Below, one piece after another: positions 1 to 62,213 of a DNA stretch of 64,000 nucleotides; within the stretch, counting starts at the first letter, position 1, and every line of letters starts with the position of its first letter. This DNA comes from an uncultured Planctomycetota bacterium (GTDB lineage: Bacteria > Planctomycetota > Planctomycetia > Gemmatales > Gemmataceae): assembly GCA_963827935.1 (NCBI GenBank), contig CAWHCN010000011.1, positions 433,183-497,182 on the forward strand, read 5' to 3'. Position numbers and translations under genes: made by a program. Below the pieces are notes generated by a model. The model was not told where the DNA came from. It ran no database searches and saw only the letters and a list, made by a program, of their open reading frames with translations.

Positions 1-281
1 TGCGTCCGAGCCATCAACGCAAAAACTCCGGCGGGAAACCGCCTCCGCGCCGTGTCGGAAACCTCACCGCGAAGGCTGAAGTCGTGGTTGCCCCAAACAC
101 CGACCGCATTGGCGTCGAGCAGCAGCGCCGCGACTTCCGCAGCTCCTTCAGACCGGGCAAACGCATCGACGGTATCACCGATTGTGACAACACGATCAAC
201 GCGGCGCTGACGGAAAAGGGAAAGAGCGCGGGCCAACTCGGCCGGGTGGCTGTGAACATCGGTAACCAATCCCAGTCGCAC
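1..281 (-). CDS. metallophosphoesterase (calcineurin-like), N-terminal part; gene continues past the window start
   Basis: Reverse-complement translation of 1-281 gives ...GLVTDVHSHPAELARALSLFRQRRVDRVVTIGDTVDAFARSEGAAEVAALLLDANAVGVWGNHDFSL. It shows the D-x-H, GD-x-x-D and GNHD phosphoesterase motifs. A GTG start is preceded by an AGGAGG Shine-Dalgarno. The ORF is not in the track because there is no stop inside the window. Confidence 0.55.
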   Translation of the reverse strand, partial: MRLGLVTDVHSHPAELARALSLFRQRRVDRVVTIGDTVDAFARSEGAAEVAALLLDANAVGVWGNHDFSLRGEVSDTARRRFPAGVFALMART

Positions 282-283
282 GC

Positions 284-580
284 CTAACCTCCTCCGCCGT
301 CTATGAAGTTGACAGTCAAGCCCCAACAGGCATCTTTTCCACTTCGTCCCGGCCGGCGCGGACCATCCACGCGGCCGGCCTCGTAGCAGGTACACACCGG
401 GGCCTCGGCGGGCAGTCCGAAGCGGGCCTTGGCCTTGGCGATCTCCTCCTGCAGTTTGGCCAGGCTGTGCGCCGGCATCGAGCGGATGCGCGGCTTCTCG
501 GCGGCTTCGGTCGCGAAGCCCAGCAGCCACTTGTCCTGGCCCAGTTCGAGGGCGACATACAGCGTCGTGGTAGTAGTCAT
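284..580 (-). pseudogene. IS110-family transposase N-terminal remnant (about 70 aa of the DEDD domain, then truncated)
   Basis: LYVALELGQDKWLLGFA...APVCTCYEAGRVDG resembles the IS110 N-terminal domain (VGIDVSK...vvmEATGrY). The remaining ~270 aa of a full transposase are absent. Confidence 0.45.
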
Positions 581-796
581 GAATCGGTCTCCGTAATCAG
601 GTTAAGGGTGTCCTACCTGATGGAGACTTGTACCACCTCCGATACCGCGCTGCCTACATGGTATCGAACGACCCGGCTCAGCAGCCGGCTCACGCGGGAA
701 GAGACGCAATGTCTCGACTAACCTTCATTCGCGTGGCCGGTCGGCTGCAGCGCCTGGCTCGGCGCGTTCGCCATGTCGCGGGGTAAGACAACCATG

Positions 797-1144
797 CTAT
801 GCATGTTCAAAGTGTCGCCCCAACCTGACGGCAGTGATCAGCACGACAACAGTCCATACCACTGCCATAATAAACACTGGCCCCGTGACCAAAATGATCA
901 ATCCACCTGTTGATCCCGACGGATGCTGGTACTCCGCTCGGGTAGCGAGAGCCGCGAGTATTCCCTCTAACACCAAACCCAGTGCGCCTGCAACAAGCAG
1001 CAGTTGGGCGGCCCGAAGCGCTACACCAGAGCGTGTAAACAGCAGGCAGCCAGCTAGTGGCCTTGGCACGAAATAATGCAAGAAATTCCAGCTGCAGCTG
1101 CTACCCTGGGAATGGAGGCCCATCAGGTGTAGGAGGCTGCCCAT
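797..1144 (-). CDS. hypothetical small membrane protein
   Basis: 115-aa ORF with two hydrophobic helices (LLLVAGALGLVLEGILAALAT and LIILVTGPVFIMAVVWTVVVLITAV). Local GC is lower than background. Confidence 0.3.
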   Translation of the reverse strand: MGSLLHLMGLHSQGSSCSWNFLHYFVPRPLAGCLLFTRSGVALRAAQLLLVAGALGLVLEGILAALATRAEYQHPSGSTGGLIILVTGPVFIMAVVWTVVVLITAVRLGRHFEHA

Positions 1145-1806
1145 GCGTGGTCGAAGGCCTCGCCCTTTGACGCTCGATTCCGATGATGTCGCTATCCTCC
1201 AGTGGCTTGCGCGCTGCCGCTCGCAACCTTGGTTCCAGATTCAACATGCTCGCATCCTCCTGGGGATCGCCGCTGGCAGGCGCGTCAAGACCCTGGCCAG
1301 CGAGTTGCAATGCGACGCGGCCACGGTCTGGCGGGTCTGCCGTGGCTACGAACAGCACGGCCTCGATGTCGTGCTGTGGGAGGCCCCCCGGCCGGGTCGC
1401 CCGCCGCAGCTTTCCCCCCTGCAACGCGCTCAGATCGTGCAGTTGGCTTGTCTGCAACCCATCGCCAAAGGGTTGGAACGTCACGCACTGGAGCAGCGCC
1501 GACTTGGCGCGACAAGCCATCAGCGATGGCATCGTCAAGACCGTCAGTCCGCGTGCGGTGCGACAGATCTTGCATGGCGTCGATCTGCAGCCACACCGCA
1601 CCCGATACTGGAAGACGAGTCGCCTCGACGCGGAGTTCAAGGAACGGGCCGAACGGGTGCTGTGGTGCTACGGAAATGCCGAGCGTTTGGCCGCGCGTGG
1701 GCTCTGGGGCGTTTGCGTCGATGAGATGCCCAACCTGCAGATTCTGGAGCGGCAGCCGATCCGGCGCGCGCGGCCTGGCTGCATCGAACATCAGGAGTTT
1801 GGGTAG
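1143..1806 (+). pseudogene. IS630-family transposase remnant: N-terminal HTH plus the start of the DDE domain, internally frameshifted (~1480) and cut at 1800 by another insertion
   Basis: Frame 1143: ILQWLARCRS...ILLGIAAGRRVKTLASELQCDAATVWRVCRGYEQHGLDVVLWEAPRPGRPP. Frame 1183: KGWNVTHWSSADLARQAISDGIVKTVSPRAVRQILHG...LWGVCVDEMPNLQILER. The second frame is colinear with the intact IS630 transposase at 29520-30850 (VSVDEATSLQAIER). Confidence 0.6.
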
Positions 1807-1813
1807 TGGGCGA

Positions 1814-2086
1814 TTAGTGTGTTGACGCGGATCGCTCGCGATGGCGGCGAAGCCCCTCTTCGAGGGCAAGGAACAGATCAGCCTTCGCTGCGCGAGGAGA
1901 AACAAAAGACCCGTTCGAGTTCGCATAGGTGCCATCGTCGGCGTCGTCCATCCGCCAGCGATAAGCCCCGTTGCTGCCCGTAACTTCGAGAGTCATCTTC
2001 TCCATGACGCATCGGCCGGTGTCGCCTTGCCAGAAAGGGGCCGCAAGGATCAGTTCTAGCCGACGAATGTTCTGTTCGGCGTTCAT
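1814..2086 (-). CDS. DUF1508 (YegP-like) small protein, passenger of the insertion element
   Basis: LEVTGSNGAYRWRMDDADDGTYANSNGSFVSPRAAKADLFLALEEG resembles the YegP/UPF0339 repeat (dG.yrFrLka.NGe...SegY.sk). Confidence 0.35.
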   Translation of the reverse strand: MNAEQNIRRLELILAAPFWQGDTGRCVMEKMTLEVTGSNGAYRWRMDDADDGTYANSNGSFVSPRAAKADLFLALEEGLRRHRERSASTH

Positions 2087-2557
2087 GTCAAAGCTCCCTG
2101 TTCATGCGTGGCCGCTCCTGGGTGGCAGACCTAGATGGCCATTTCACAAGTTCCTGAGCAGCTTTTCAGCCGTAAGTCGTTGGCCTGTAACGTCCGAAGC
2201 TGCTCATGGATTTACGAAACGGTCATCTAGCCCTGATCCGGTTCGTCCTTGATGAACAAGCCCGCCAGTTCCGCCCAGCTCATTCGCCTGGACAGTTTGC
2301 CGTTGTTTGGCCACCAGCGTATCCCGCCGACGCTGACGATCATGGTGCCGAGCTTGCGCTCTTTCTTTCCCATTTGTCCCAGACATCAAATTGAATCCCG
2401 GCCCTCCCGAGCCAGATTGGTTCCTGGATGCTCGCCTTCACGTACTTGGTAGGCCGACCCTTCTGTCTGCCTCGCATGACGACTCCTCGTTGAGTGATGT
2501 CGGGGTGATGCGTGACCGCTCTTGCTATTCTACGCGCGGCGAAGGATAATACCCAGC

Positions 2558-2824
2558 ATGGCCAAGAAACCCCGCAAGCCGAAGACCCCTGACCCGGCAT
2601 CCTTCGCATTCGGCGTGCTCCAGCACGTCATCGAGGCTACGGGCGACACGCCGGCCGAGCCCCCGGCCCCGCCGGCGGATGTCGGCAAGGACCCTGCCGC
2701 CGTCGCCCTGGGGCGCAAGGGCGGGTTGAAGGGTGGGCCGGCCAGGGCGAAAAAGCTCGGCAAGAAGAAACTCCGCGAGGCGGCCAAGAAGGCTGCGGCG
2801 GCCCGTTGGGGCAAAGCCGAATGA
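2558..2824 (+). CDS. small basic protein with a GRKGG...KGG...AAARWGK C-terminal motif
   Basis: MAKKPRKPKTP...ALGRKGGLKGGPARAKKLGKKKLREAAKKAAAARWGKAE. This is a KGG-like basic tail seen on small mobile-element or stress proteins. An antisense ORF overlaps it. Confidence 0.3.
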   Translation: MAKKPRKPKTPDPASFAFGVLQHVIEATGDTPAEPPAPPADVGKDPAAVALGRKGGLKGGPARAKKLGKKKLREAAKKAAAARWGKAE

Positions 2825-2829
2825 ACTCA

Positions 2830-3198
2830 CTAGATCAGGTCTTGCTCATCGAGCACTTTTCGACATTCTTCGGGTAGTCGGTGACTATTCTGCAAAGCCC
2901 CGACGCGGAGCTTCTTCAGTAAAGTGGCAGAGCATGGCTTATGAGGCTTCAGCAGCTTCGCTTTGCGTAGAGTTTCGAGAGCGGCCAAGGATGTAACTCT
3001 TGCTCGCTCGTATGGCACATATGTCTTATGGCCAACGAAAGGGTGCTCGCCCTTTTCTACAATACAACCTGCCTTGTCGCCAACCGTGTGTGTCGTAAAA
3101 TTTACGATAACGACATTATCTGAATCTATATTCGTTTCAGATATGATGATCCACAGATGATGGTACATGCCATCAATAAATGTGTCGCCAGGGTTCAT
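2830..3198 (-). CDS. putative toxin partner of the Panacea antitoxin, with a loosely MazF/PemK-like pattern
   Basis: 122-aa ORF. Its start overlaps the upstream Panacea gene stop by 4 nt. GDTFIDG...HLWIIISE...VVIVNFTT...ERARVTSLAALETL loosely fits the PemK/MazF pattern (GD.v.vdf..pvlVlS..vvvvPiTs..dqirtid.rL). The region is AT-richer than background. Confidence 0.35.
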   Translation of the reverse strand: MNPGDTFIDGMYHHLWIIISETNIDSDNVVIVNFTTHTVGDKAGCIVEKGEHPFVGHKTYVPYERARVTSLAALETLRKAKLLKPHKPCSATLLKKLRVGALQNSHRLPEECRKVLDEQDLI

Positions 3199-3762
3199 TT
3201 CTTCCTTGCAAATAGCTTGTCAAAATAGGCTTTTTCTTGAGCATCTTGAAGAATGGCGTCTTTGTCCTTCAATCGGCCAACCGCCTCAATCAGATGCTCA
3301 AAGGGAATGGCAGTTGACGTACCTTTATGGTAGTTTTTCTCCCATTCCTCGAAGTGAGTTTCCCGAGCGATGTCAAAGTCGTCTTGTCCAAGACGCGCGG
3401 CCGACACCTCGTTCAGCAAGCTGACTTCCTGGCGGGATAGGGCGGAAGGGCTGAGGTCAGTAACAAGACTAATGAGATAGTCTTCATTCTGGAAATGGCG
3501 GGACCATTCAGCTTGGTCCGAGTGAGAAGCCCTTTATGAGATCGTATACCTCGCTGTGAATTGGACCGTAGTCCATCGCGCACAAGCGACCGCCGACAAT
3601 TGGCCGACCCCTCCTCTTGAGACTTTCGCGGTCCGCAATGTAAAGAAGGGCCAATAGCCGTTTCCGGCCCATGATTCGATGGGGGGCGAGCCGCAACAGT
3701 GTTGCCGCTGCTTCAATCGCCTTTCGCGTGTCGATGCGGAAAATCATGGCGGTGCTCCTCAA
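3195..3762 (-). CDS. Panacea-domain (DUF4065) antitoxin-like protein PanA, apparent +/-1 frameshift near 3515
   Basis: N-terminal frame: KRLLALLYIADRESLKRRGRPIVGGRLCAMDYGPIHSEVYDLIKG matches the Panacea/SocA/GepA core (KLqKLLYfa....g.pl...f.AwahGPV.pevY). The C-terminal frame continues SHSDQAEWSRHFQNEDYLISLVTDLSPSALSRQEVSLLNEV.... The two frames overlap at 3511-3533. Confidence 0.55.
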
Positions 3763-3935
3763 TCGGTTAGACGGCCCGAAACGTCTAAAGGTTCAGAGCG
3801 GTCACGTCTCCTAGCGGCGATCACCGTGCGCATTCTCCGGCTTTCTACGAAAAAATCCAGCGAATTGTTCTTGCCATGCGTGAGCGGTCACGTATAATAA
3901 GTATGTGGTGTTGATCGTTACCGGGAGCAACTCAG

Positions 3936-4925
3936 ATGCAATGCCCGACCTGCCAGAACGAAGCCCGCAAGTTCGGCCGCGACCGAGCCGGCAACCAGCG
4001 CTACCAGTGCCAGGCGTGCCGCAAGACGTTCTCTGACCGCCCGGTCCGGCCCCTGGGCGAAATGCGCCTGCCGCTCGACAAGGCACTGCCCTGCCTCCAG
4101 CTCCTGACAGAAGGCAACAGCATCCGGGCCACGGTGCGGATCAGCGGCGTGGCGAAAGACACCGTGATTGCCCTTCTGGTCGCGGTCGGGGAGAAGGGCG
4201 AGGCGTTGCTGCGGGAGAGCTTGCGGGGCGTTCCCGCACGGGACGTGCAGCTCGATGAAATCTGGGGATTCATCGGCATGAAGGAGAAGACGAAGACCCG
4301 GAAGGCGCTGGAGACATCGGACATTGGCGATGCGTATTGTTTCGTCGCCATCGAACGGACGACGAAACTGGTTCTCGCGTGGTATCTCGGCAAGCGGGAT
4401 CAGGGCAGCACGCGGATATTCCTTGAGGACGTGGAGCGCTCCACGCGCGGTCGGGTTCAGTTGAGCACGGACGGCTTGAAGTGCTACCCGTCGGCCGTTC
4501 AACTGGCCTTCTCGGAATGGGAGGTTGACCACGGCACGTTGGTCAAGGAGTACGCGACGAAGGCGGATGAGCACCGCTATTCGCCTGGTGAAGTCATTGA
4601 GACTATCAAGGGGGTTTGCTGTGGCAACCCCGACCCGGCAAAGATTTGCACGCGCCACGTCGAACGGCATAACCTGTCGATGCGGATGCAGAACCGGCGC
4701 CTGACCCGGTTGACGAACGCGTTCAGCAAGAAGTGGCAGAACCATGAGGCCGCGCTTGGCCTGTACTTCGCCGTGTACAATTACGTCCGGCCGCACGGTA
4801 CACTTACGCATGACGCAGAGGATCGGCGGAAGACGACCCCGGCGATGGCTGCCGGGTTGACCGATCATCCCTGGACCTTAGTGGAGCTGCTCCAGGCGGC
4901 GGCCAGTGCGGCGTCAACACACTAA
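3936..4925 (+). CDS. IS1595/IS1-like family transposase
   Basis: N-terminal Zn-ribbon CPTCQNEARKFGRD...YQCQACRKTF. DDE region DEIWGFIGMKEK...DGLKCYPSAV. C-terminal ERHNLSMRMQNRRLTRLTNAFSKKWQNHEAALGLYFAVYNYVRPH is typical of IS1595/IS1 transposases. Confidence 0.75.
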   Translation: MQCPTCQNEARKFGRDRAGNQRYQCQACRKTFSDRPVRPLGEMRLPLDKALPCLQLLTEGNSIRATVRISGVAKDTVIALLVAVGEKGEALLRESLRGVPARDVQLDEIWGFIGMKEKTKTRKALETSDIGDAYCFVAIERTTKLVLAWYLGKRDQGSTRIFLEDVERSTRGRVQLSTDGLKCYPSAVQLAFSEWEVDHGTLVKEYATKADEHRYSPGEVIETIKGVCCGNPDPAKICTRHVERHNLSMRMQNRRLTRLTNAFSKKWQNHEAALGLYFAVYNYVRPHGTLTHDAEDRRKTTPAMAAGLTDHPWTLVELLQAAASAASTH

Positions 4926-5057
4926 TCGCCCACTACCCGATTTTTTTGGTTTCTCCGGCCAATGCGTGCAGCGGGACCTTCGGACAGTGGTTCAGCCTGA
5001 GCGGCCAGCACGCTTTGCTCAAACTGATCCTTTATCGCCAGCGCGTGTCTGCACGCG

Positions 5058-5157
5058 CGGAATTATATGCGACCTGGCGCCTGGCGCTGAAATGTGAAGG
5101 CGCATGTCCTGATTTGACAAGGGATTGCGACTCGCGCGCCAGGTCGCATATAATTCC
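5058..5157. repeat. perfect 23-24-bp inverted repeat (GGAATTATATGCGACCTGGCGC ... GCGCCAGGTCGCATATAATTCC) with a ~50-bp spacer
   Basis: Read directly in the sequence. The AT-rich arms contrast with the flanks. It may be an insertion-sequence or MITE end remnant, or a strong hairpin. Confidence 0.6.
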
Positions 5158-5663
5158 CGGCGAATTCAGTACGACATGGCAATTTCCAGGGAACCGGCAG
5201 CGCCTTCCGTCTCCTCGAACCGGTTCGCGAGGCGGCGAAGCATTCCGGCGAGTAGGCGGGGGTTGGCAGGCCAGCCCTGCGGGAGCTTCTTGGTTCCCGT
5301 GAGCCCAGCGGTGTCGGTGAGGCGTGCGAGAAGGTCGCGGACGATGCCTTCCCATGTCCCGCCCTTGTCATGTAACGGTTGGCGGAGGGGCGGCGCGATG
5401 GCCGAGGTGTCGAGGAAGGCCGTTGCTGGGTGAGGTACGATGAGGCGTCATTGACATTTCTCCCCAGAGCGGTCGGGGGAACGCGTGGTCCGGTGAGGTA
5501 CAATCCCGCGAGGGTTCTTTTGCGGGGCCGTTGGCCATGCAGTGCCGCGCCAGTTCCTTGACGATGCTCCGGGGGATGTATGGGCTGCGCCCCAGCCTGG
5601 GGCTGAGCGGGGCGGCAAAGTGACCTGATCGACCGCGGGCGACGTTAGTCGAGGTCGGCGGCG

Positions 5664-5888
5664 TTACTTCTTGCCATTGAGCCAGTCCTCGATTTCCCAG
5701 GCCCTGAAGCGGATCGTGCCGCGCCGGCCAGGGCTCAGCTTAAGCGGCCCCGGGAACCGCCCCGCGGACACGGCGCGTTCGATAGTACGGCGGGTGAGCT
5801 GAACCAGTTCGCAAACGTCAGCCATCGAGAGGAGCTTGTCGATCCGTCCTTGACGCGGAGCTACGGCGGTTTTCGGTGCGGCGAGCAT
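5664..5888 (-). CDS. alpA: AlpA/Xis-family excisionase-type HTH regulator
   Basis: LLSMADVCELVQLTRRTIERAVSAGRFPGPLKLSPGRRGTIRFRAWEIEDWLNGKK is a typical AlpA/HTH_17 prophage regulator sequence. Confidence 0.7.
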   Translation of the reverse strand: MLAAPKTAVAPRQGRIDKLLSMADVCELVQLTRRTIERAVSAGRFPGPLKLSPGRRGTIRFRAWEIEDWLNGKK

Positions 5889-6241
5889 GGCCTGCCTCGG
5901 TTTGTTCTGGGCGAGGATGCCTGTGTCGGCTTGCGGCGTATCACGACGCACCCAAGTCTAACCGGCGAAGGACGGAGAGTTGAGGGGACTAGGCGGACAG
6001 CAGCGATCTTTTGAGTGCCGGCCGGCGGCGTCTATGGACCTTGTCGAGAAGGTTGGACTATAACGGAGTGTTTGTGTAGCGTTAACGGCCCAGCGCCACC
6101 CCCAGCGCTACACCGCGATGACCGGAATGTGTCGGATTGAGTCGTAATGTGTCGTGTGTTTTGTGGGTCGCAACCCATTGCCGTAACAGAGGTTGTCGCA
6201 TCCGGACGCATAACATCGGCATGTGTTGCATAGGGGACAAT

Positions 6242-6287
6242 TCGGATTGCAAATCCGCCATCCCCGGTTCGCATCCGGGAAGGGCCT
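6242..6287 (+). other. tRNA-Cys(GCA) 3'-half remnant (anticodon arm, T-arm, 3' acceptor strand) with no pairing 5' half; putative integrative-element att site
   Basis: CGGATTGCAAATCCG is identical to the E. coli tRNA-Cys anticodon arm. The loop is TTGCAAA (U33, GCA anticodon, A37). The T-arm is CCCGG-TTCGCAT-CCGGG. The following AAGGGCC has no complementary 5' strand upstream. Confidence 0.5.
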
Positions 6288-6499
6288 CTTTCCTCTCAGC
6301 CCGTCTCACGGGGCCGCAAACCCTGTCATCTCCTGCCACCTGACCACCCTGCCACGCGTGGACCAACGCGCGCGAAATGACGACAACTCAGGCCCGGCTC
6401 GGTAAGAAAGACGCTTGAACAGAACCGCCCTCCCTGACCCTGTGGATGGTTCATGGGGGCTTTCCATCGTAACCCATCGGATTGCGAGCGGCACCTGCC

Positions 6500-8602
6500 A
6501 TGCGATGCACCTCTTCCTTGTCCCTGACCCTGTGCTTCCTGCTGCCCGGCCTGGCCGGCGCGGCCCCGCGGGATGGCGCGACCCTGGAACACCTTCTCGG
6601 AGCGCCGTTTCCCACGGCCCTGACGGCGTCACCCGCGGGAGGCCATGTCGCCTGGGTGGCCAACGACCGTGGTCGGCGGAACGTCTGGGTGGCGGAGGCA
6701 CCCGACTACAGAAGTCGCGCCCTCACCAGCTATACCAAGGACGACGGACAGGACCTGGCCGATCTCGCCTGGACAGCGGACGGCCAGAGTGTCTGTTATG
6801 TCCGGGGGAGTCTGGGCCACGATGGCGACCCGTTCAATCCGCGCAGCCGCCCGCGCACACCGGAGCAGGCGGTCTGGATCGTCGCCCGCTCCGGCGGTGC
6901 GCCGCGCCGGCTCGGCGCTGGACACGCCCCAGCCGCCGCGCCCCGGGGCGATCGCGTCGCCTGGCTGCACAAGGGCCAGGTCTGGGCCGCCCCGGTCGGC
7001 GGGCGAGCCGAGGCGGCGCAGCTCTTCCAGGTCCACGGGCAGGTTCAGCAGCTCCGCTGGTCGCCCGACGGCACAACCCTGGCGTTTGTCTCTGACCGTG
7101 GCGATCACAGCTTCATTGGCGTCTATCGGGGATCGGAGCAGCCTATCCTTTGGCTCGATCCGAGCGTGGACCGCGACAGCGAGCCGGCCTGGTCGCCCGA
7201 CGGTCGGCAGATCGCCTTCCTGCGCAGGCCGACCTCGCGCGAGCCGTTCACCTTTGGCCCGCAGCCGACGGCCGAGCCGTGGTCCCTCCGCGTGGCGGCG
7301 GTCGCCGACGGCAAGGGCCAGCAAGTCTGGAAAGCCGATCCCGGAGTCGGCAGCGCCTTTCGCGGCGTCGAGGCGACCAACCAGATCTTCTGGGGGGCCG
7401 ACGACCGCCTCGTCTTCCCCTGGGAGGCCGACGGCTGGACCCACCTCTACGCGGTTGCCGCGACGGGCGGCAAGGCGACCCTGCTCACCCCCGGCAAGTT
7501 CGAGGTGGAAGCGGTAAGCCTGAGCCCGGATCGCCGCCGCCTTGTTTACAGCTCCAACCAGGGCGACATCGATCGCCGACACATCTGGACTGTCCCCGTC
7601 CGCGACGGCGAGCCGGAGCCGCTGATGAAAAGCGTCGGCATCGAGTGGTCGCCCGTGATGACCAGCGACGGCAAGGCGATCGCCTTTCTCCGTTCCGATG
7701 CCCGCCGCCCGGCCCGGCCGGCCATCCGCGTTGGGACGGCGGCCGTCCGCGACCTGGCCGCGATTCCGTCGGACTTCCCCGCCGACCAGCTGGTGATTCC
7801 GTCGCGGGTGACGATCACGGCCGTGGACGGGAAGAAGGCGCCGGGGCAACTCTTTCTGCCGCCCGGCTTGAAGCCCGGCGAACGCCGCCCCGCCATCCTT
7901 TACACGCACGGCGGGTCGCGCCGCCAAATGCTCCTGGGCTGGCACATGATGGCCGGCTACACCAATCACTATGCCCTCAACCAGTACCTGGCCCTGCACG
8001 GCTTCGTCGTGCTGTCGCTCAACTACCGCAGCGGCATCGGCTATGGCCTCGATTTCCGCGAGGCGCCTGGTTACGGCGCCCACGGGGCCAGCGAGTTCAA
8101 CGACCTGCTCGGTGCCGCCCGTTACCTCAAGGACCGCCCGGACGTGGATGCCGGCCGAATCGGTCTCTGGGGTGGGTCCTACGGCGGCTATCTGACCGGG
8201 CTCGGCCTGTCTCGCGCCTCCGACGTGTTTGCCGCCGGTGTCGACATCCACGGTGTCTACGACTGGAACGTGGTCATCCGCAACTTCGAGCCCGGCTACG
8301 ATCCCCTGGCCCGCCGCGAAACGGCCCGCCTGGCCTTCGAGTCATCGCCGGCCGCCTCGATCAAGTCGTGGCGGTCCCCGGTCCTGGTCATCCACGGTGA
8401 GCACGATCCCGACGTGCCCTTTTCCGAGAGCGTACACCTGGTGGAAGACCTGCGGAAGCAGAAGGTGGAGGTGGAGCAGTTGATCTTCCCGGAGGAAGCC
8501 CACGGCTTCCTGACGCACGAGGCGTGGCTGCGCTGCTTGACGGCGACCGCGGAATTCCTCGAGCGCCACCTGGGCAGTCCTGGCCGGAAGGCGATGCCCT
8601 GA
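6500..8602 (+). CDS. S9-family serine peptidase (prolyl oligopeptidase/acylaminoacyl-peptidase type) with an N-terminal beta-propeller and signal peptide
   Basis: Signal peptide MRCTSSLSLTLCFLLPGLAGAAP. WD/TolB-like repeats (WSPDG...). Catalytic GGSYGGY serine motif and a C-terminal His/Asp region (IHGEHDPDVP). Confidence 0.85.
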   Translation: MRCTSSLSLTLCFLLPGLAGAAPRDGATLEHLLGAPFPTALTASPAGGHVAWVANDRGRRNVWVAEAPDYRSRALTSYTKDDGQDLADLAWTADGQSVCYVRGSLGHDGDPFNPRSRPRTPEQAVWIVARSGGAPRRLGAGHAPAAAPRGDRVAWLHKGQVWAAPVGGRAEAAQLFQVHGQVQQLRWSPDGTTLAFVSDRGDHSFIGVYRGSEQPILWLDPSVDRDSEPAWSPDGRQIAFLRRPTSREPFTFGPQPTAEPWSLRVAAVADGKGQQVWKADPGVGSAFRGVEATNQIFWGADDRLVFPWEADGWTHLYAVAATGGKATLLTPGKFEVEAVSLSPDRRRLVYSSNQGDIDRRHIWTVPVRDGEPEPLMKSVGIEWSPVMTSDGKAIAFLRSDARRPARPAIRVGTAAVRDLAAIPSDFPADQLVIPSRVTITAVDGKKAPGQLFLPPGLKPGERRPAILYTHGGSRRQMLLGWHMMAGYTNHYALNQYLALHGFVVLSLNYRSGIGYGLDFREAPGYGAHGASEFNDLLGAARYLKDRPDVDAGRIGLWGGSYGGYLTGLGLSRASDVFAAGVDIHGVYDWNVVIRNFEPGYDPLARRETARLAFESSPAASIKSWRSPVLVIHGEHDPDVPFSESVHLVEDLRKQKVEVEQLIFPEEAHGFLTHEAWLRCLTATAEFLERHLGSPGRKAMP

Positions 8603-8612
8603 GGTGGATCGC

Positions 8613-10406
8613 CTACAACCGCTCCAGCGCCGCGTCGGCGGTCCGGCTCGTTTCGGTGTCGTCGTTGTCCGTCAAGGCGGCCAGGGCCTGGCGGATACGG
8701 CGATCGGAGAGGGTGAGGAAATAGCGGCCGGCCTGCACGTCGCGGCCCAGTTCCACGGGGTTGCCGTTTCCCACGGTCAGCAGATGGTCCAGCCGCGCCA
8801 GGGTGCAACTCGACGCATAGAGTTCGCAGGCCGCATCCGCGATCCGCTCGTGGAGGTACTCGCTGGGCAGGAACCGCTCGACCGAACCGCAGTGCCGCAG
8901 GACCCACTGGACGGCCAGGCCGAAGTCGCGGACACGGTGGCCCAGACGGCTGGCCTCCGCACGGAGGGCGGTGCTCTGCACCGGCACGTCCGGCGAGGAA
9001 AGGCGGGCGGCCAGTTGCTCCTTGCCGAAGCGCCACAGCCGGCCTGCTTCCTTCAGCGGGCTCTTCACCGCGTGCATCACCGCCAGCAGCCCTTCGCCGA
9101 CGGCCCGCGAGCCGACCACGCTGATGAAGGCCCGCAGGACGTCGTTGGCCCCCTCGCCGATGGTGTTGATGCGTGCGTCGCGCATCATGCGCTCCAGCGG
9201 GTCGGTGGTGAAGTACCCCTGCCCACCGTAAATCTGCAAGGCGTCGTTGACGATTTGCCAAAGCGCGTCGGTCGACCAGACCTTGAGCATGGCCGTTTCG
9301 AGCATGAAGTCGTCGATGCCGCGGTCGATGAACGAGGCGCACTCGGCCGTGGTCGCCTCCATCGCGAAGGCACAGGCGGCCATGGTGGCGATCTTCTTCT
9401 TGACCAGCTCGAACTCGGCGATCGGCTGGCCAAACTGCTGGCGACGCTTGGCGTGCCGCACCGCCAGGCGCAGGCAGGTCTTGGCGGCCCCGGTGCAACT
9501 GGCGCCGAACGTGGTGCGGCCGAAGTCGAGCACCGTCAAGGCCACGCGCAGTCCTTTACCGATCGGGCCCAGGACATTCTCCTTCGGCACGCGCATGTTG
9601 CGGAACGCGAGGCGGGCGGTGGCGGTCCCGCGGATGCCGCACTTCGGCATGCGGGCCTCGACTACCTCGAAACCGGGCATGTCCGGGGTGACCAGGAAGG
9701 CGGTGACTTTGGACTCCCCGGGCTGACGCCCGGGGCTCGCTTCCACCGGTGTGCGAGCCATGACGGTCAGCACGCCGGCAATGGCGCCGTTGGTGATGTA
9801 GCGCTTCTCGCCGTTGAGAATGTAGGCGTTGCCGTCGGGCGTGGGTGTGGCCGTGGTCTGAACATTGGCGGCGTCGGAGCCGGCGGCGGGCTCGGTGAGG
9901 GCGAAGGCGCCGAGCTTCCTACCGCTGACCAAGTCCGGCAGCCAGCGCGCCTTCTGCTCCGCCGTGCCGAACAGCAGCAGGGCCCGGATGCCGATCGAGT
10001 GGTGGGCATTGACGAACACCGACACGCCGGCATCGTGCCCGCCGATCAGCTCCATGATCTTGAGGTAGCCGAGCTGCGAGAAACCGCGTCCGCCGTACTC
10101 CGTGGGCGCCGTCATGCCCAGCACGCCCAGCCGGGCCAGGCCCGCGATCACCTCGGGTGGAATGTCGGCCTGGCGGTCGATGGCGGCAGCATCCACCTGC
10201 TCGTCGAGGAAGCGCTGCACCTCGGCCACCGCCTGGCTGACCCGGTCGCGCTCGCCGGCCTTGATCTCGGGGTAAGGGAAGAGCAGGGGGCCGTTGAAGT
10301 GGCCAAAGAACAGCGCCTTGGCGAACCCGAGTTGCTCGGGCGTGGCCCCCAGAATTTCCTCGGCCTGTTTCTGCTGCTGGGCGACCTGTGCGGCGGTCAG
10401 GGGCAT
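8613..10406 (-). CDS. acyl-CoA dehydrogenase, long form (~600 aa, ACAD with C-terminal extension)
   Basis: MPLTAAQVAQQQKQAEEILGA... followed by ACAD N-terminal, middle and C-terminal domains (AFALTEPAAGSDAANVQTTA, YITNGAIAG, IYGGQGYFTTDPLERMMRDARINTIGEGANDV). Confidence 0.85.
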   Translation of the reverse strand: MPLTAAQVAQQQKQAEEILGATPEQLGFAKALFFGHFNGPLLFPYPEIKAGERDRVSQAVAEVQRFLDEQVDAAAIDRQADIPPEVIAGLARLGVLGMTAPTEYGGRGFSQLGYLKIMELIGGHDAGVSVFVNAHHSIGIRALLLFGTAEQKARWLPDLVSGRKLGAFALTEPAAGSDAANVQTTATPTPDGNAYILNGEKRYITNGAIAGVLTVMARTPVEASPGRQPGESKVTAFLVTPDMPGFEVVEARMPKCGIRGTATARLAFRNMRVPKENVLGPIGKGLRVALTVLDFGRTTFGASCTGAAKTCLRLAVRHAKRRQQFGQPIAEFELVKKKIATMAACAFAMEATTAECASFIDRGIDDFMLETAMLKVWSTDALWQIVNDALQIYGGQGYFTTDPLERMMRDARINTIGEGANDVLRAFISVVGSRAVGEGLLAVMHAVKSPLKEAGRLWRFGKEQLAARLSSPDVPVQSTALRAEASRLGHRVRDFGLAVQWVLRHCGSVERFLPSEYLHERIADAACELYASSCTLARLDHLLTVGNGNPVELGRDVQAGRYFLTLSDRRIRQALAALTDNDDTETSRTADAALERL

Positions 10407-28665: not shown

Positions 28666-28886
28666 CCCTTGCGCGTGGGTAGTGTCGAGTCATGGCGATT
28701 AGCTCGCCGGCCTCGTCGTACTGTAATCCAGGTGAATGGGCGGAGCAAGCGAGCAGCGGGAGCGAATGGGAATTCATGGCTTGGGGAAAAGATGGAGCGC
28801 GCGTAGATTGCCGGCTAGTTCAGCTTTGACCGAAAAAGGGGAGATTACGTCTACGCAGTCCCCGTGATCGGCGTTTGGGTCCAGGG

Positions 28887-29427
28887 ATGCCTACGTTCAT
28901 TGACGAGTCGGGTGAAACGGGCCGAGTGTCCCCTTATTTCCGCCTGGCCGCGGTTTGGCTGCCCACGCAAGCGGCGGTTGAGGCTTACCGAGCGGGCATC
29001 CGGCATTTTCAGCAGCAGATCGGCCTTCAAGGGTACGAGTTCAAGTCGAGCAAATCCCTCTCACCGGCGCGACGTGTTGCCTACTTCCAAGCCGCGATGG
29101 CGCACCCGTTTCAATTCGCCGTCGCCTCGGTGGACAAGCAACACCCCGAATGGCAAGAGGCGGGTGGGTCGGTCCTTCACTGGGCCTGTGCCGTCTCCCT
29201 GGCGGTTAGCCTGCGTGACTGTTATCTGAAAGAAGAGACACGCCGAGCTGCCGAGGGTGGCGGCGATCGCCCGCTGAACGAACTGGTCGTGGTGGATGAC
29301 AACCAAGACCGTGACTTCCTTGCGGTTATCAAGTGCAAGTTCCGCCAACTTGGTTCCGGGGTACGGGCAGGTTCGCCCCTGGTGGGTAAAGTGAAATTCC
29401 GCGGTTCTGGACCTGAAGAGCTGATCC
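28887..29427 (+). pseudogene. DUF3800-family gene, 5' portion, interrupted by the IS630 insertion (reads through into the transposase frame)
   Basis: MPTFIDESGETG... carries the DUF3800 N-terminal hallmark (IYIDESG). A possible C-terminal remainder follows the IS at about 30871-30965. Confidence 0.45.
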
Positions 29428-30876
29428 AGCTAGTGCCACACCGCGGAAACGGCGTAGCACGAAAACTGGACATGGCGTATCTTGCCTGGTCCCTCGATTG
29501 TGAGGCGGGAGATCGACCTATGCCAGGGAAGGCCGCGAAGATCATCGTCAGCGAAAGGCAGCAGGTTCTGCTGCAGGAATTCAGCAAGTCGCGTACGGTC
29601 GCCAAGTGCGTGGTGCAGCGGGCGACGATCATTTTGCTGGGATTCGCCGGCCTGCTGAACGAGGAGATCGCCTCGCGGGTCGGCCTCAACCGACTGCAGG
29701 TGGGCCTCTGGCGGCAGCGCTGGCGGGACGCGTGGGATTCGCTGTGCGTGTGGGAATGTACCGAACCGCACCGTCTGCGTGAGGCGATCGTCAACGTCCT
29801 CTCCGACGCCCCGCGACCGGGTGCCCCGGCGACGTTTACCGCCTTTCAGGTGTCCCAGATCGTGGCCTTGGCGTGCGAACCGCCGAAGTTGTCGGGCCGG
29901 CCGATCGACCACTGGACGCTCCGGGAACTGCGTGACGAGGCGATCACGCGGCAGATCGTGGAGGATATTTCCGTGTCTCAGGTTGGCCGCTTCCTGCAGC
30001 AGGCCGCCGTGCAGCCGCACCGCAAGAAAATGTGGCTCAACACCACGGAGAAGGACCCCCAGAAGTTCCAGGCCGAGGTCGAAAATGTTTGCCGAACCTA
30101 CCTCGAGGCGCCGGCGAAGGCGGGCGCTGGCACGCACACGGTGAGCGTGGACGAGGCGACCTCGCTGCAGGCCATCGAGCGGAACGCCCCCGACAAGCCG
30201 GCCCAACCCAACAGCGTACCGAAGCAGGAATTCGAATACACCCGGCACGGGACGACGACGCTGACCGCCGGTCTGGACGTGGTGACGGGGATGATCGTCT
30301 GCCCAACGCTGGAGGCGACCCGTACCGAAGCGGAGTTCGTCGCGCACATCACCCGCACCGTGGACACCGACCCCGCCGCCGAATGGCTCTTCGTGGTCGA
30401 CTGCCTCAACACGCACATGTCGGAAAGCCTGGTGAAGTTCGTCGCCGAACGCTGCGGCCTGCCCGAAGAGCTGGGAAAAAAAACGACAGCGGCATCCTCG
30501 CATCGATGGCTACGCGGAAGGAGTTCCTGTCGGACGCCGCCCACCGGATCCGCTTCGTCTACCTCCCGAAGCACAGTTCGTGGCTTAACCAGATCGAGAT
30601 CGTGTTCGGGATCATCCACCGGAAGCTGCTGCGGTGCGGAAACTTCACGTCGGTGACGGACCTGGAAGCGCAGTTGCGAGAATTCATGGACTACTACAAC
30701 GCTACGATGGCCCACCCCTTCGCCTGGACTTACACCGGCAAGCCGGTGCAGAAGCAACGCCGCGCGAGCTTCGTCGCACCGCACCGCCGCCTCAAACTGG
30801 GGAAAATCCAGCGACTGGCGGAAGCCGCTGCCTTATGCAATGATGCTTGAGAGATGCGGCACTAGCTGACATGATC
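29428..30876. mobile_element. IS630-family insertion sequence (boundaries approximate; 11-bp terminal inverted repeat CAGCTAGTGCC / GGCACTAGCTG)
   Basis: The inverted 11-mers at 29428-29438 and 30866-30876 bracket the transposase gene. The element sits inside a DUF3800 ORF. Confidence 0.5.
29520..30850 (+). CDS. IS630-family transposase, frameshift inside an A8 homopolymer near 30477-30484
   Basis: HTH: IIVSERQQVLLQEFSKSRTVAKCVVQRATIILLGFAGLLNEEIASRVGL. DDE region: TVSVDEATSLQAIER...WLFVVDCLNTHMSESL, then after GGGAAAAAAAACG the +1 frame gives ...FVYLPKHSSWLNQIEIVFGIIHRKLL...YYNATMAHPFAWTY. Confidence 0.8.
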
Positions 30877-61718: not shown

Positions 61719-62213
61719 GCTCCCTTTGCGCGGTACTCACTGAGGAGGCGTAAGGCGAACGGCAGGAGATAATCTCCCCTCGGCCCGGTGCTCCGACCGA
61801 GTACGGGGGGCTGGGGCGACGATCCCTCGCCCTGCGGCGAAGGGGCCCGTCGTAGCGCTCCCGCACACATCGGACTTCAGTTCAACCTGGCGATTTTTGC
61901 TGAGTTGCGAAGGCACATGTCGTTATTTACCAATGGCTTGCGGTGTCCGCGCCAGGTTGAACAGAATTCCCGGTCACTTCAGTTCAACCTGGCAACGCGT
62001 GCGGTGCCGGCGGGCGGTCGGAGATGCGCTGCCGAGGGCTACTAACTCCTGCCGGTCGCCTAATGACGCGGCTCGTGATTTGGATACTTGTCGTTCTCTT
62101 CCTGGCCTTCACCTATATTGGGTGTACAGGTACACCGGAGCCGCACGACGAGTCGGTGTTCAACAACCCTCGGGACTCATCGGCTCCGTGAGCCACTGAA
62201 GGGCAAGCACGCC

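Follow-up and report, generated by a model that had tools for sequence, protein, structure and literature searches.

What is the origin of a piece of tRNA-Cys gene that lacks its 5' half and lies beside a cluster of insertion sequences (IS) in the DNA of an uncultured member of the Gemmataceae? The piece stands near the left end of a 64-kb stretch of contig CAWHCN010000011.1 (positions 433,183 to 497,182), hereafter the window, of which the first ~6.3 kb (~284-6287) was the feature under study. A preliminary description, made by reading the letters, had taken this part for an integrative-island remnant buried under IS. When an island integrates in a tRNA gene, a regenerated tRNA gene and a displaced fragment mark its two ends, and the Islander method uses both marks (Hudson, Lau & Williams 2015, PMC4383910). 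There, a 3' fragment of the tRNA gene (tDNA) accompanied 3760 of 3919 islands, and 2083 had an attP centred on the anticodon (PMC4383910).

The island reading was borne out by a true tRNA-Cys 3' part, by a hot spot of integration at such genes, by a matching gene module in another locus and by GC content. With a probability of roughly 0.6, ~284-6287 is the distal end (attR side), now decayed, of a small island of the type HTH_17/AlpA regulator, primase/helicase, tyrosine integrase, which would have integrated in tRNA-Cys and later been colonised by IS of the IS110, IS630 and IS1 families. The feature is a familiar type of genomic scar and does not represent a new system. Coordinates are collected in Table 1; loci retrieved for comparison carry L numbers.

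The tRNA-Cys fragment

The 3' half without a 5' half is present as described beforehand. Positions 6243-6287 were identical at 43 of 45 bases to intact tRNA-Cys genes from over 80 metagenome contigs, and correspond to the displaced tDNA of Islander. The anticodon arm (with the GCA anticodon retained), variable loop, T arm, 3' acceptor strand and a discriminator U are kept; the 5' half is absent. Relative to intact genes of the GGCCCCT/AGGGGCC acceptor class, the two substitutions are A58->C at 6272 and G->A at 6281. The Rfam tRNA model in truncated mode placed 6238-6287 on model positions 22-71 (18.9 bits, E = 0.052). A chance hairpin-rich sequence would fit this score, which lies under the tRNA gathering score of 29, but the identity to real tRNA-Cys genes and shuffling of the window (0 matches to a 25-mer of the fragment, 0.02 to a 20-mer) excluded it for all practical purposes.

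ARAGORN was run over the whole 64-kb window and called zero tRNAs, around 6150-6300 or elsewhere. A full-length tRNA whose acceptor stem pairs is not present at 6215-6290: by direct reading, the bases in the 5' acceptor position pair with the 3' strand at only 3 of 7 positions. Among 127 locus-window alignments made with blastn, no intact tRNA-Cys locus reached 5' of 6243. Two alignments only started further 5', both with loci where the tRNA is itself a 3' fragment (L017 at 6225, L021 at 6241). An apparent D-arm at 6224-6241 in a local Rfam alignment was rejected as not homologous, because no intact tRNA-Cys gene aligns there. Extension of the similarity rightward to 6340 in L073 and L116 was likewise rejected, being low-identity CT-rich sequence with no gene synteny.

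The fragment begins at tRNA position 28, in the 5' strand of the anticodon stem, which is one of the sublocations known from Islander. This breakpoint bears on whether a resident tRNA-Cys gene was merely truncated by an ordinary deletion or IS event, with no site-specific integration, and the neighbouring alpA-type gene and primase stump are unrelated mobile debris. Rearrangement is visible in the region (an IS1-family element without target duplication, truncated IS630 and IS110 copies, a primase gene mostly deleted) and would suit such a history. Against it, the break lies in the anticodon stem as at 33 other fragment-type sites, the DNA at the break is the alpA promoter region with phased repeats and not an IS end, and outright loss of tRNA-Cys would require a second genomic copy. 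Truncation of this kind was judged quite improbable.

It was also noted that the decamer TCGCATCCGG at 6269-6278 (T arm, atypical C included) recurs at 6196-6205, 73 nt upstream, with flanking GGTT similarity. By a rough estimate, ~0.06 such repeats are expected by chance.

tRNA-Cys as an integration target

Public collections were searched with the 36-mer 6244-6279, in which two T-loop positions could vary. Matches were obtained in one GTDB genome, one viral contig and at least 120 metagenome contigs. The fetched loci held 126 sites, comprising 89 intact tRNA-Cys genes, 33 3' fragments without a 5' half and 4 sites near a contig end that were left unclassified. Intact genes fell into two acceptor classes, GGCCCCT/AGGGGCC and GGCGCCG/CGGCGCC. 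At the 33 fragment-type sites the exact tRNA match started in the anticodon stem in every case (33/33), and the upstream flanks lacked the D-arm motif of the intact genes.

A hidden Markov model (HMM) for the integrase was built ad hoc from 33 matches, among the tRNA-Cys loci, to the integrase of locus L037. It found a tyrosine integrase directly 3' of at least 13 of the 89 intact tRNA-Cys genes. Twelve of these 13 integrases were on the strand opposite the tRNA, and for 11 of the 12 the open frame enters the tRNA. Some of the other fragment-type sites adjoin prophage genes (ParB/methylase and terminase). Because integrases adjoin intact genes, and because fragment-type and prophage-adjoining sites occur, tRNA-Cys with this 36-mer 3' half is a frequent integration target, a busy site in uncultured soil-type bacteria. 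When the HMM was applied to the window, its sole match was the peptide encoded by the tRNA fragment, and no integrase was found. Profile scans of all open reading frames (ORFs) in 1-6300 gave no integrase domain either, so the integrase used by Islander is missing inside the window, in line with the earlier statement that none is visible.

A parallel in gene order was found in L037 (Ga0208044_1001114), in which an island adjoins an intact tRNA-Cys gene with the identical 36-mer. Its genes lie on the opposite strand and read toward the tRNA. Counted from the tRNA they encode a tyrosine integrase (52.5 bits with Phage_integrase), a protein of 199 aa, an 823-aa primase of the Prim-Pol/DUF3987 type (151.7 bits), a protein of 119 aa and two HTH_17 proteins. 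The distal end of an island of this type would read tRNA 3' fragment, HTH_17 gene, primase, which is the arrangement in the window. Since the window keeps an alpA-type gene and a primase stump as in the L037 module, it looks like a distal (attR) island end.

The only GTDB match (L001; DATGZX010000010.1, a Gemmataceae metagenome-assembled genome) received a 67-nt tRNA-Cys call from ARAGORN at 2505-2571, which was rejected as an intact gene. The D-arm motif of intact genes is missing from its 5' half, C faces C in acceptor pairs 1-72 and 2-71, and the trailer runs into conserved element sequence. It was treated as a fragment-type site, and the L001/L013 site resembles a displaced fragment that was mistaken for a gene, a problem that has been described (PMC9897764).

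Several recurrent features were seen at the tRNA-Cys loci. In L001, L014, L028, L036, L074, L114 and L120 an open frame leaves the fragment to the left on the minus strand (…PGFEPGMADLQSA…) and reaches, ~40-70 codons on, the conserved peptide DPDLARVIDAWPALPExIRxAIxALV; L120 also has an integrase farther on, on the same strand. The DNA motif CGGAAGT-N18-20-CTTGTGG is found before the fragment in L036, L045 and L080, with variants in L009, L017, L028 and L063. The frame and the CGGAAGT motif appear to be a conserved small gene or a feature of the att arm in one family of tRNA-Cys elements; neither was found in the window. Integrase frames remain open across the opposite-strand tRNA-Cys (…GPSRIRTGDGGFAIRC…) in L037, L052, L097, L118, L073, L033, L070, L124, L007, L086 and L053, so integration may alter the predicted C-terminal tail of the integrase. 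A conserved sequence (…GTGCAAnCnGATGCAACnTCGTGCGnATTGGTGCGGATCGTC…) was seen within ~100 nt beyond the 3' end of tRNA-Cys in L001, L007, L008, L037, L052, L053 and L076, whether the tRNA was an intact gene or a fragment. One element family probably has this sequence as its integrase-side arm; the window lacks it.

The alpA-type gene, the primase stump and the repeats

An AlpA-type gene had been named beside the fragment, and it is there, intact, with HTH_17 above its cut-off and a match to phrog_66 ('excisionase and transcriptional regulator', E = 1.4e-9). The Phage_AlpA score was 17.5 bits, under the cut-off of 21. The deposited gene call is a 74-aa form starting at 5885 (P0122). The gene lies 291 nt from the tRNA fragment, so a helix-turn-helix (HTH) gene adjoins the putative att site; excision activity is predicted from the family. 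A tblastn search with the protein gave no match in 125 loci.

Downstream of alpA, on the same strand, is a stretch that was missing from the first list of features and that is best read as the C-terminal stump of a mobile-element primase/helicase, with the N-terminal ~500-800 codons missing. HMMER, run against 1.84 billion proteins, returned 73 matches at E <= 1e-3, and residues 11-77 fit the C-terminal regions of 600-950-aa proteins. Five of ten long homologues that were scanned bear a primase-type domain (Prim-Pol+PriCT_1, DUF3854, Toprim or Zn_ribbon_DnaG+AAA). The stump and alpA are only ~216 nt apart, so the remainder of the primase gene must have been deleted. In plasmid and phage-family searches, the region and the primase stump yielded no more than a weak IS110 match.

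Between alpA and the fragment lie an alpA promoter-like site and four copies of the 12-nt motif CGGAATGTGTCG. We infer for the repeats a role as candidate arm-type sites, bound by protein, of the att region.

Composition and boundaries

GC content was 0.60 over 284-6287, compared with 0.696 in the S9 peptidase gene to the right and 0.664 in the remaining window. It ranged from 0.66 to 0.70 in the rightward DNA and reached its minimum, 0.47, inside the IS cargo. The region therefore departs from its flanks in composition, as islands do in Islander. At the right, relatives of the peptidase (L003/L004 at 81-82% amino-acid identity, L002 at 78-79%) align to the window only from ~6368-6377 onward, which places the right boundary between 6287 and 6368. 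At the left, a metallophosphoesterase gene starts with GTG at 281-279 after a ribosome-binding site (GGAGGAGG) and leaves the window at position 1; this piece may be island DNA or core DNA alike.

The L002-L004 relatives also raise the possibility that no tRNA-Cys gene ever stood here. The fragment would then be the element's own attP-type copy (P arm and tRNA-like core), brought in by IS-mediated rearrangement, by secondary integration at a non-tRNA site or as a former tandem-array junction. The absence of a tRNA by the orthologous peptidase in these relatives fits that origin. So do the acceptor variant AAGGGCC, seen otherwise only at the fragment-type site L001/L013, the T-arm decamer repeated inside the putative P arm, three IS elements within 5 kb capable of moving DNA, and the junctions at other loci (e.g. 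L001, L008) where fragments run into conserved element sequence. To the right of the window fragment, however, there is neither an integrase stump nor conserved sequence of the element type, and core homology is back only 80 nt away; the two substitutions would be equally expected in a decaying host-derived fragment. An element-derived fragment was considered unlikely on this balance.

Several observations weigh against a decayed island end at a resident tRNA-Cys gene. An integrase, an intact tRNA and a further copy of the fragment are all absent from the 64-kb window, and the left boundary of the island is not visible in it. No tRNA-Cys occurs at the orthologous position in L002-L004; the left neighbours of the peptidase in these loci are unrelated to one another and to the window, so this absence says little either way. 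The 79 nt (6288-6366) between the fragment and the resumed homology have no assignment. The CT-rich trailer is found at occupied and unoccupied tRNA-Cys loci alike and so cannot separate a host-derived from an element-derived fragment. A word-indexed protein search for relatives of the AlpA protein returned P0122 alone, and its similarity to the HTH_17 proteins of L037 is weak.

Proposed order of events

The order of events that we infer for an island end is as follows. A tyrosine integrase would have recombined the attP of the element with the tRNA-Cys gene. The attP would have carried a copy of tRNA positions ~28-73, so that the crossover was centred on the anticodon loop. The element's copy would have restored the tRNA at the integrase-proximal end, and the displaced 3' piece would have remained at the far end, by the P arm with its 12-nt repeats and the alpA promoter. 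The island may then have died; most of the primase gene would have been deleted, and IS630 and IS110 would have inserted and been truncated. The IS1-family element would have entered the IS630 copy, after which its right flank was presumably rearranged with loss of the IS630 3' half and of the target duplication, and the displaced fragment would have gained its two substitutions. An intact tRNA-Cys gene (expected ~GGCCCCTTAGCCAAGCGGTAAGGCAGCGGATTGCAAATCCGCCATCCCCGGTTCGAATCCGGGAGGGGCCT), followed by a tyrosine integrase, would lie to the left on the same strand.

Table 1. Positions, strands and supporting evidence for features of the window.
Feature	Positions	Strand	Evidence or remark
Metallophosphoesterase gene, 5' part	1-281	-	Metallophos_2 35.8 bits, Metallophos 34.3 bits; GC 0.629
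IS110-family transposase, N-terminal remnant, ~70 aa	371-580	-	tblastn 44-46% identity
IS630-family transposase remnant	1143-1800	+	NCBIfam IS630 in two frames; HTH_32, HTH_29
IS1-family cargo-carrying insertion sequence, 3136 bp	1802-4937	+	Perfect terminal inverted repeats GGTAGTGGGCGATTAGTGTGTTGACGC
Lysine-rich small ORF, ~88 aa (MAKKxRKPKTPDP...KAAAARWGK)	2558-2824	+	Conserved in every IS copy examined
122-aa cargo gene	2830-3198	-	phrog_19071 (unknown function) E = 1.2e-14; no Pfam match
SocA/Panacea-domain antitoxin-like gene, frameshifted	3195-3762	-	SocA_Panacea 46.7 bits; ORFs 3508-3762 and 3195-3419
IS1-family transposase, 329 aa, N-terminal zinc-binding domain	3936-4925	+	DDE_Tnp_IS1
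Large palindromic element, 109 nt	5054-5162		Perfect 22-nt arms 5059-5080 and 5136-5157, ~55 nt between
Predicted primase/helicase C-terminal stump, mobile-element type	5166-5447	-	93 codons and stop, no start codon; HMMER
AlpA-type gene (HTH_17, excisionase/regulator family), intact	5664-5951	-	HTH_17 36.8 bits (cut-off 27); phrog_66
alpA promoter-like site	6085-6057	-	Faces alpA
12-nt motif, four copies	6123-6228	+	Three spaced 10 nt apart (6123-6154); one at 6217-6228, 15 nt before the fragment
tRNA-Cys(GCA) 3' fragment, tRNA positions 28-73	6243-6287	+	Identity to intact tRNA-Cys genes; truncated-mode Rfam
S9 prolyl-oligopeptidase-family peptidase gene and upstream region, core DNA	6368-8602	+	Relatives' homology; GC 0.696

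Comparison with known islands

The window agrees with the anticodon-centred class of Islander in that a displaced 3' fragment from the anticodon stem marks the end, composition is foreign, and the att site has an HTH gene of the excisionase type and a replication primase beside it. It differs in showing one end, with the integrase and regenerated tRNA absent from it, in the two substitutions of the fragment, and in an interior that has been largely deleted and replaced by IS.

Islands of the P4-like and CP4-57-like kinds combine an integrase, AlpA and a primase-helicase module and use a tRNA-type gene as target. The small AlpA-family HTH gene followed by a primase/helicase gene recalls them. 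Unlike those islands, the window has alpA far from the presumed integrase, a Phage_AlpA score below the cut-off and a primase gene reduced to 93 codons; the comparison concerns gene order and families, not sequence similarity to characterised members. With L037 the window shares the 36-nt tRNA-Cys 3' half and, in part, the one-strand order HTH_17, Prim-Pol primase, integrase, tRNA. The L037 proteins, by contrast, are not close homologues of the window AlpA, and L037 is seen at the intact integrase end only.

The current understanding of island integration is unchanged by these results. Their value for annotation is that the fragment marks the boundary between core and acquired DNA and explains possible pseudo-tRNA calls by tRNA finders. 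The analysis also brought out, as mildly useful by-products, an IS1 family that recurs with cargo and a conserved accessory gene, and a palindromic element that is repeated; both are treated below.

Insertion sequences

The IS110 N-terminal remnant was supported by tblastn: residues 2-70 (nt 371-577) of the ORF 284-580(-) matched annotated IS110-family transposases (E = 3e-8). It had been said to abut the metallophosphoesterase start, but the homology ends ~90 nt away; a DNA match covers 370-449, and the ORF runs on without homology to its stop at 284. Searches of the remnant against Pfam and NCBIfam gave no match.

The IS630 remnant was likewise recovered, as two NCBIfam matches covering model positions 2-73 and 69-169 of 299 (38 and 33 bits, cut-off 100). 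One frameshift lies near 1453-1463. The N-terminal HTH part is kept, and the copy is cut at 1800/1801, exactly where the inverted repeat of the IS1-family element begins. Its continuation, the catalytic C-terminal half, was sought after 4938 and was not found, which fits a truncated family member. A second IS630-family transposase was seen at ~29770-30656(+), within the ORF 28875-30656, with an NCBIfam score above the cut-off (107.8 bits); the open frame extends well upstream of the part that encodes the transposase. As the two share only ~27-35% identity, they are different IS630 elements.

The nested 3.1-kb element with passenger genes stood up to analysis, but its label did not. Perfect 27/28-nt inverted repeats were found at 1801-1828 and 4911-4938, starting GGTAGTG. 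The transposase scored 36.5 bits with DDE_Tnp_IS1 (PF03400; cut-off 24.1), 36.3 bits with the IS1/IS1595 zinc domain NF050000 (cut-off 28) and 88.7 bits with the IS1 model NF033558, just under its cut-off of 100. Its full-length homologues are annotated as IS1 family, and by its domain the transposase belongs there. 'IS1595-like' was rejected, since no IS1595 model in Pfam or NCBIfam matched at E <= 0.01 and the zinc-binding N-terminus alone is shared.

Related elements were found in L128 (same ends with 0-1 mismatch, 2979 bp, at 338-3316) and in L129/L130 (related ends, 3510 bp, at 463-3972 in L130). The L130 copy is flanked by a perfect 8-bp duplication, GAAAACTG. No target-site duplication was found for the window copy (left flank caggagtttg, right flank cgattttttt). 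Because the duplication is missing, and the IS630 3' half is missing beyond 4938, a rearrangement after insertion of the IS1-family element is indicated. Its ends and its sister copies show the 3136-bp unit to be a genuine mobile element.

The transposase is common to all copies (80-86% amino-acid identity), and so is the lysine-rich ORF, which is 73-82% identical across four elements with different other cargo. Its copies lie at 601-978 in L128, 770-1150 in L130 and 4732-5007 in L126, with the sequence MAKKxRKPKTPDPASFAFGVLQHVIEATGD...GRKGGLKGGPARAKKLGKKKLREAAKKAAAARWGK. No significant Pfam or NCBIfam family was obtained for it, and phrog_2384 matched weakly (E = 0.0034). The remaining cargo differs between copies: a Panacea gene with a partner of unknown function in the window, an nSTAND/AAA NTPase in L128, and an HTH_3 protein with further genes of unknown function in L129/L130.

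In the window, the two pieces of the Panacea gene match phrog_1281 at positions 4-79 and 101-163, and its end is overlapped by the 122-aa gene by 4 nt (local GC 0.47-0.48). The 122-aa gene is possibly the toxin partner. The SocA_Panacea gene stands immediately upstream of this small gene of unknown function and overlaps it, an arrangement like that of PanA-PanT (PanA/SocA) pairs. It differs from them in that the Panacea gene is frameshifted and the phrog_19071 partner has no known toxin domain, so it is not an intact Panacea toxin-antitoxin module; the pairs were compared from their genes alone. A 39-nt inverted repeat (2126-2164/2197-2235, 77% complementary, 32-nt spacer) was seen in the 435-nt gap between a 90-aa ORF and the lysine-rich ORF.

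Like single-ORF, cargo-carrying members of the IS1 family ('transporter IS'), the element has a zinc finger and DDE_Tnp_IS1, ends fitting GGnnnTG, passenger genes and, in the sister copy L130, an 8-bp target duplication. It is unlike them in its NCBIfam IS1 score below the cut-off, in the conserved lysine-rich ORF beside swappable cargo and in the missing duplication of the window copy. Such members include the ISMhu11-type subgroup of ISfinder.

The palindromic element

The perfect hairpin reported near 5058-5157 exists, with 22-nt arms that are 93% complementary when taken at 27 nt; its DNA fold has a z of -7.2. It had been called AT-rich and counted as part of the island. With 58% GC in the element as a whole, AT-richness is local to the arms. 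A second copy, diverged from the first, occupies 61869-61976, intergenic among ordinary core genes (DUF883-like and SRPBCC-like neighbours, labels guessed from translations), so the hairpin is not island-specific. It is a low-copy genome repeat, like a miniature inverted-repeat transposable element or a repetitive extragenic palindrome, and not part of the island.

The two copies differ at several arm positions, yet in five main-stem pairs (7 of the 32 pairs predicted in all) both partners have changed and complementarity is retained. Conservation is higher in the central ~55 nt than in the arms. In both hairpins a third occurrence of the arm, partial and in direct orientation, comes after the right one (~5166-5185 and 61977-61996). 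A covariance model found only these two true copies in the window and none in 65 loci or in viral contigs; its further matches were rejected as generic GC hairpins with equal scores on both strands.

Both by-products, the cargo-carrying IS1 family with its accessory ORF and the covarying palindrome, might be undescribed. A bolder joint proposal, which we regard as doubtful, is that the IS1-family element stands for an undescribed, widespread 'transporter' IS subgroup of soil and peat bacteria, with a fixed backbone (transposase, lysine-rich ~88-aa protein, 27-nt ends) and a swappable slot for toxin-antitoxin or defence-like cargo, and, separately, that the 109-nt palindrome could be a new structured element. 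If true, the subgroup would be a vehicle that moves small defence modules between genomes.

Other observations in the window

An Rfam scan of the whole window gave no family at or above threshold. A sub-threshold match to the Acido-Lenti-1 RNA (9716-9741; 23.7 bits, gathering score 37) lies in, or antisense to, an acyl-CoA dehydrogenase gene and is probably due to chance. Named relatives of the window genes were Terriglobia for the peptidase (~60%) and Gemmataceae for the IS1 transposase (61%) and the tRNA fragment.

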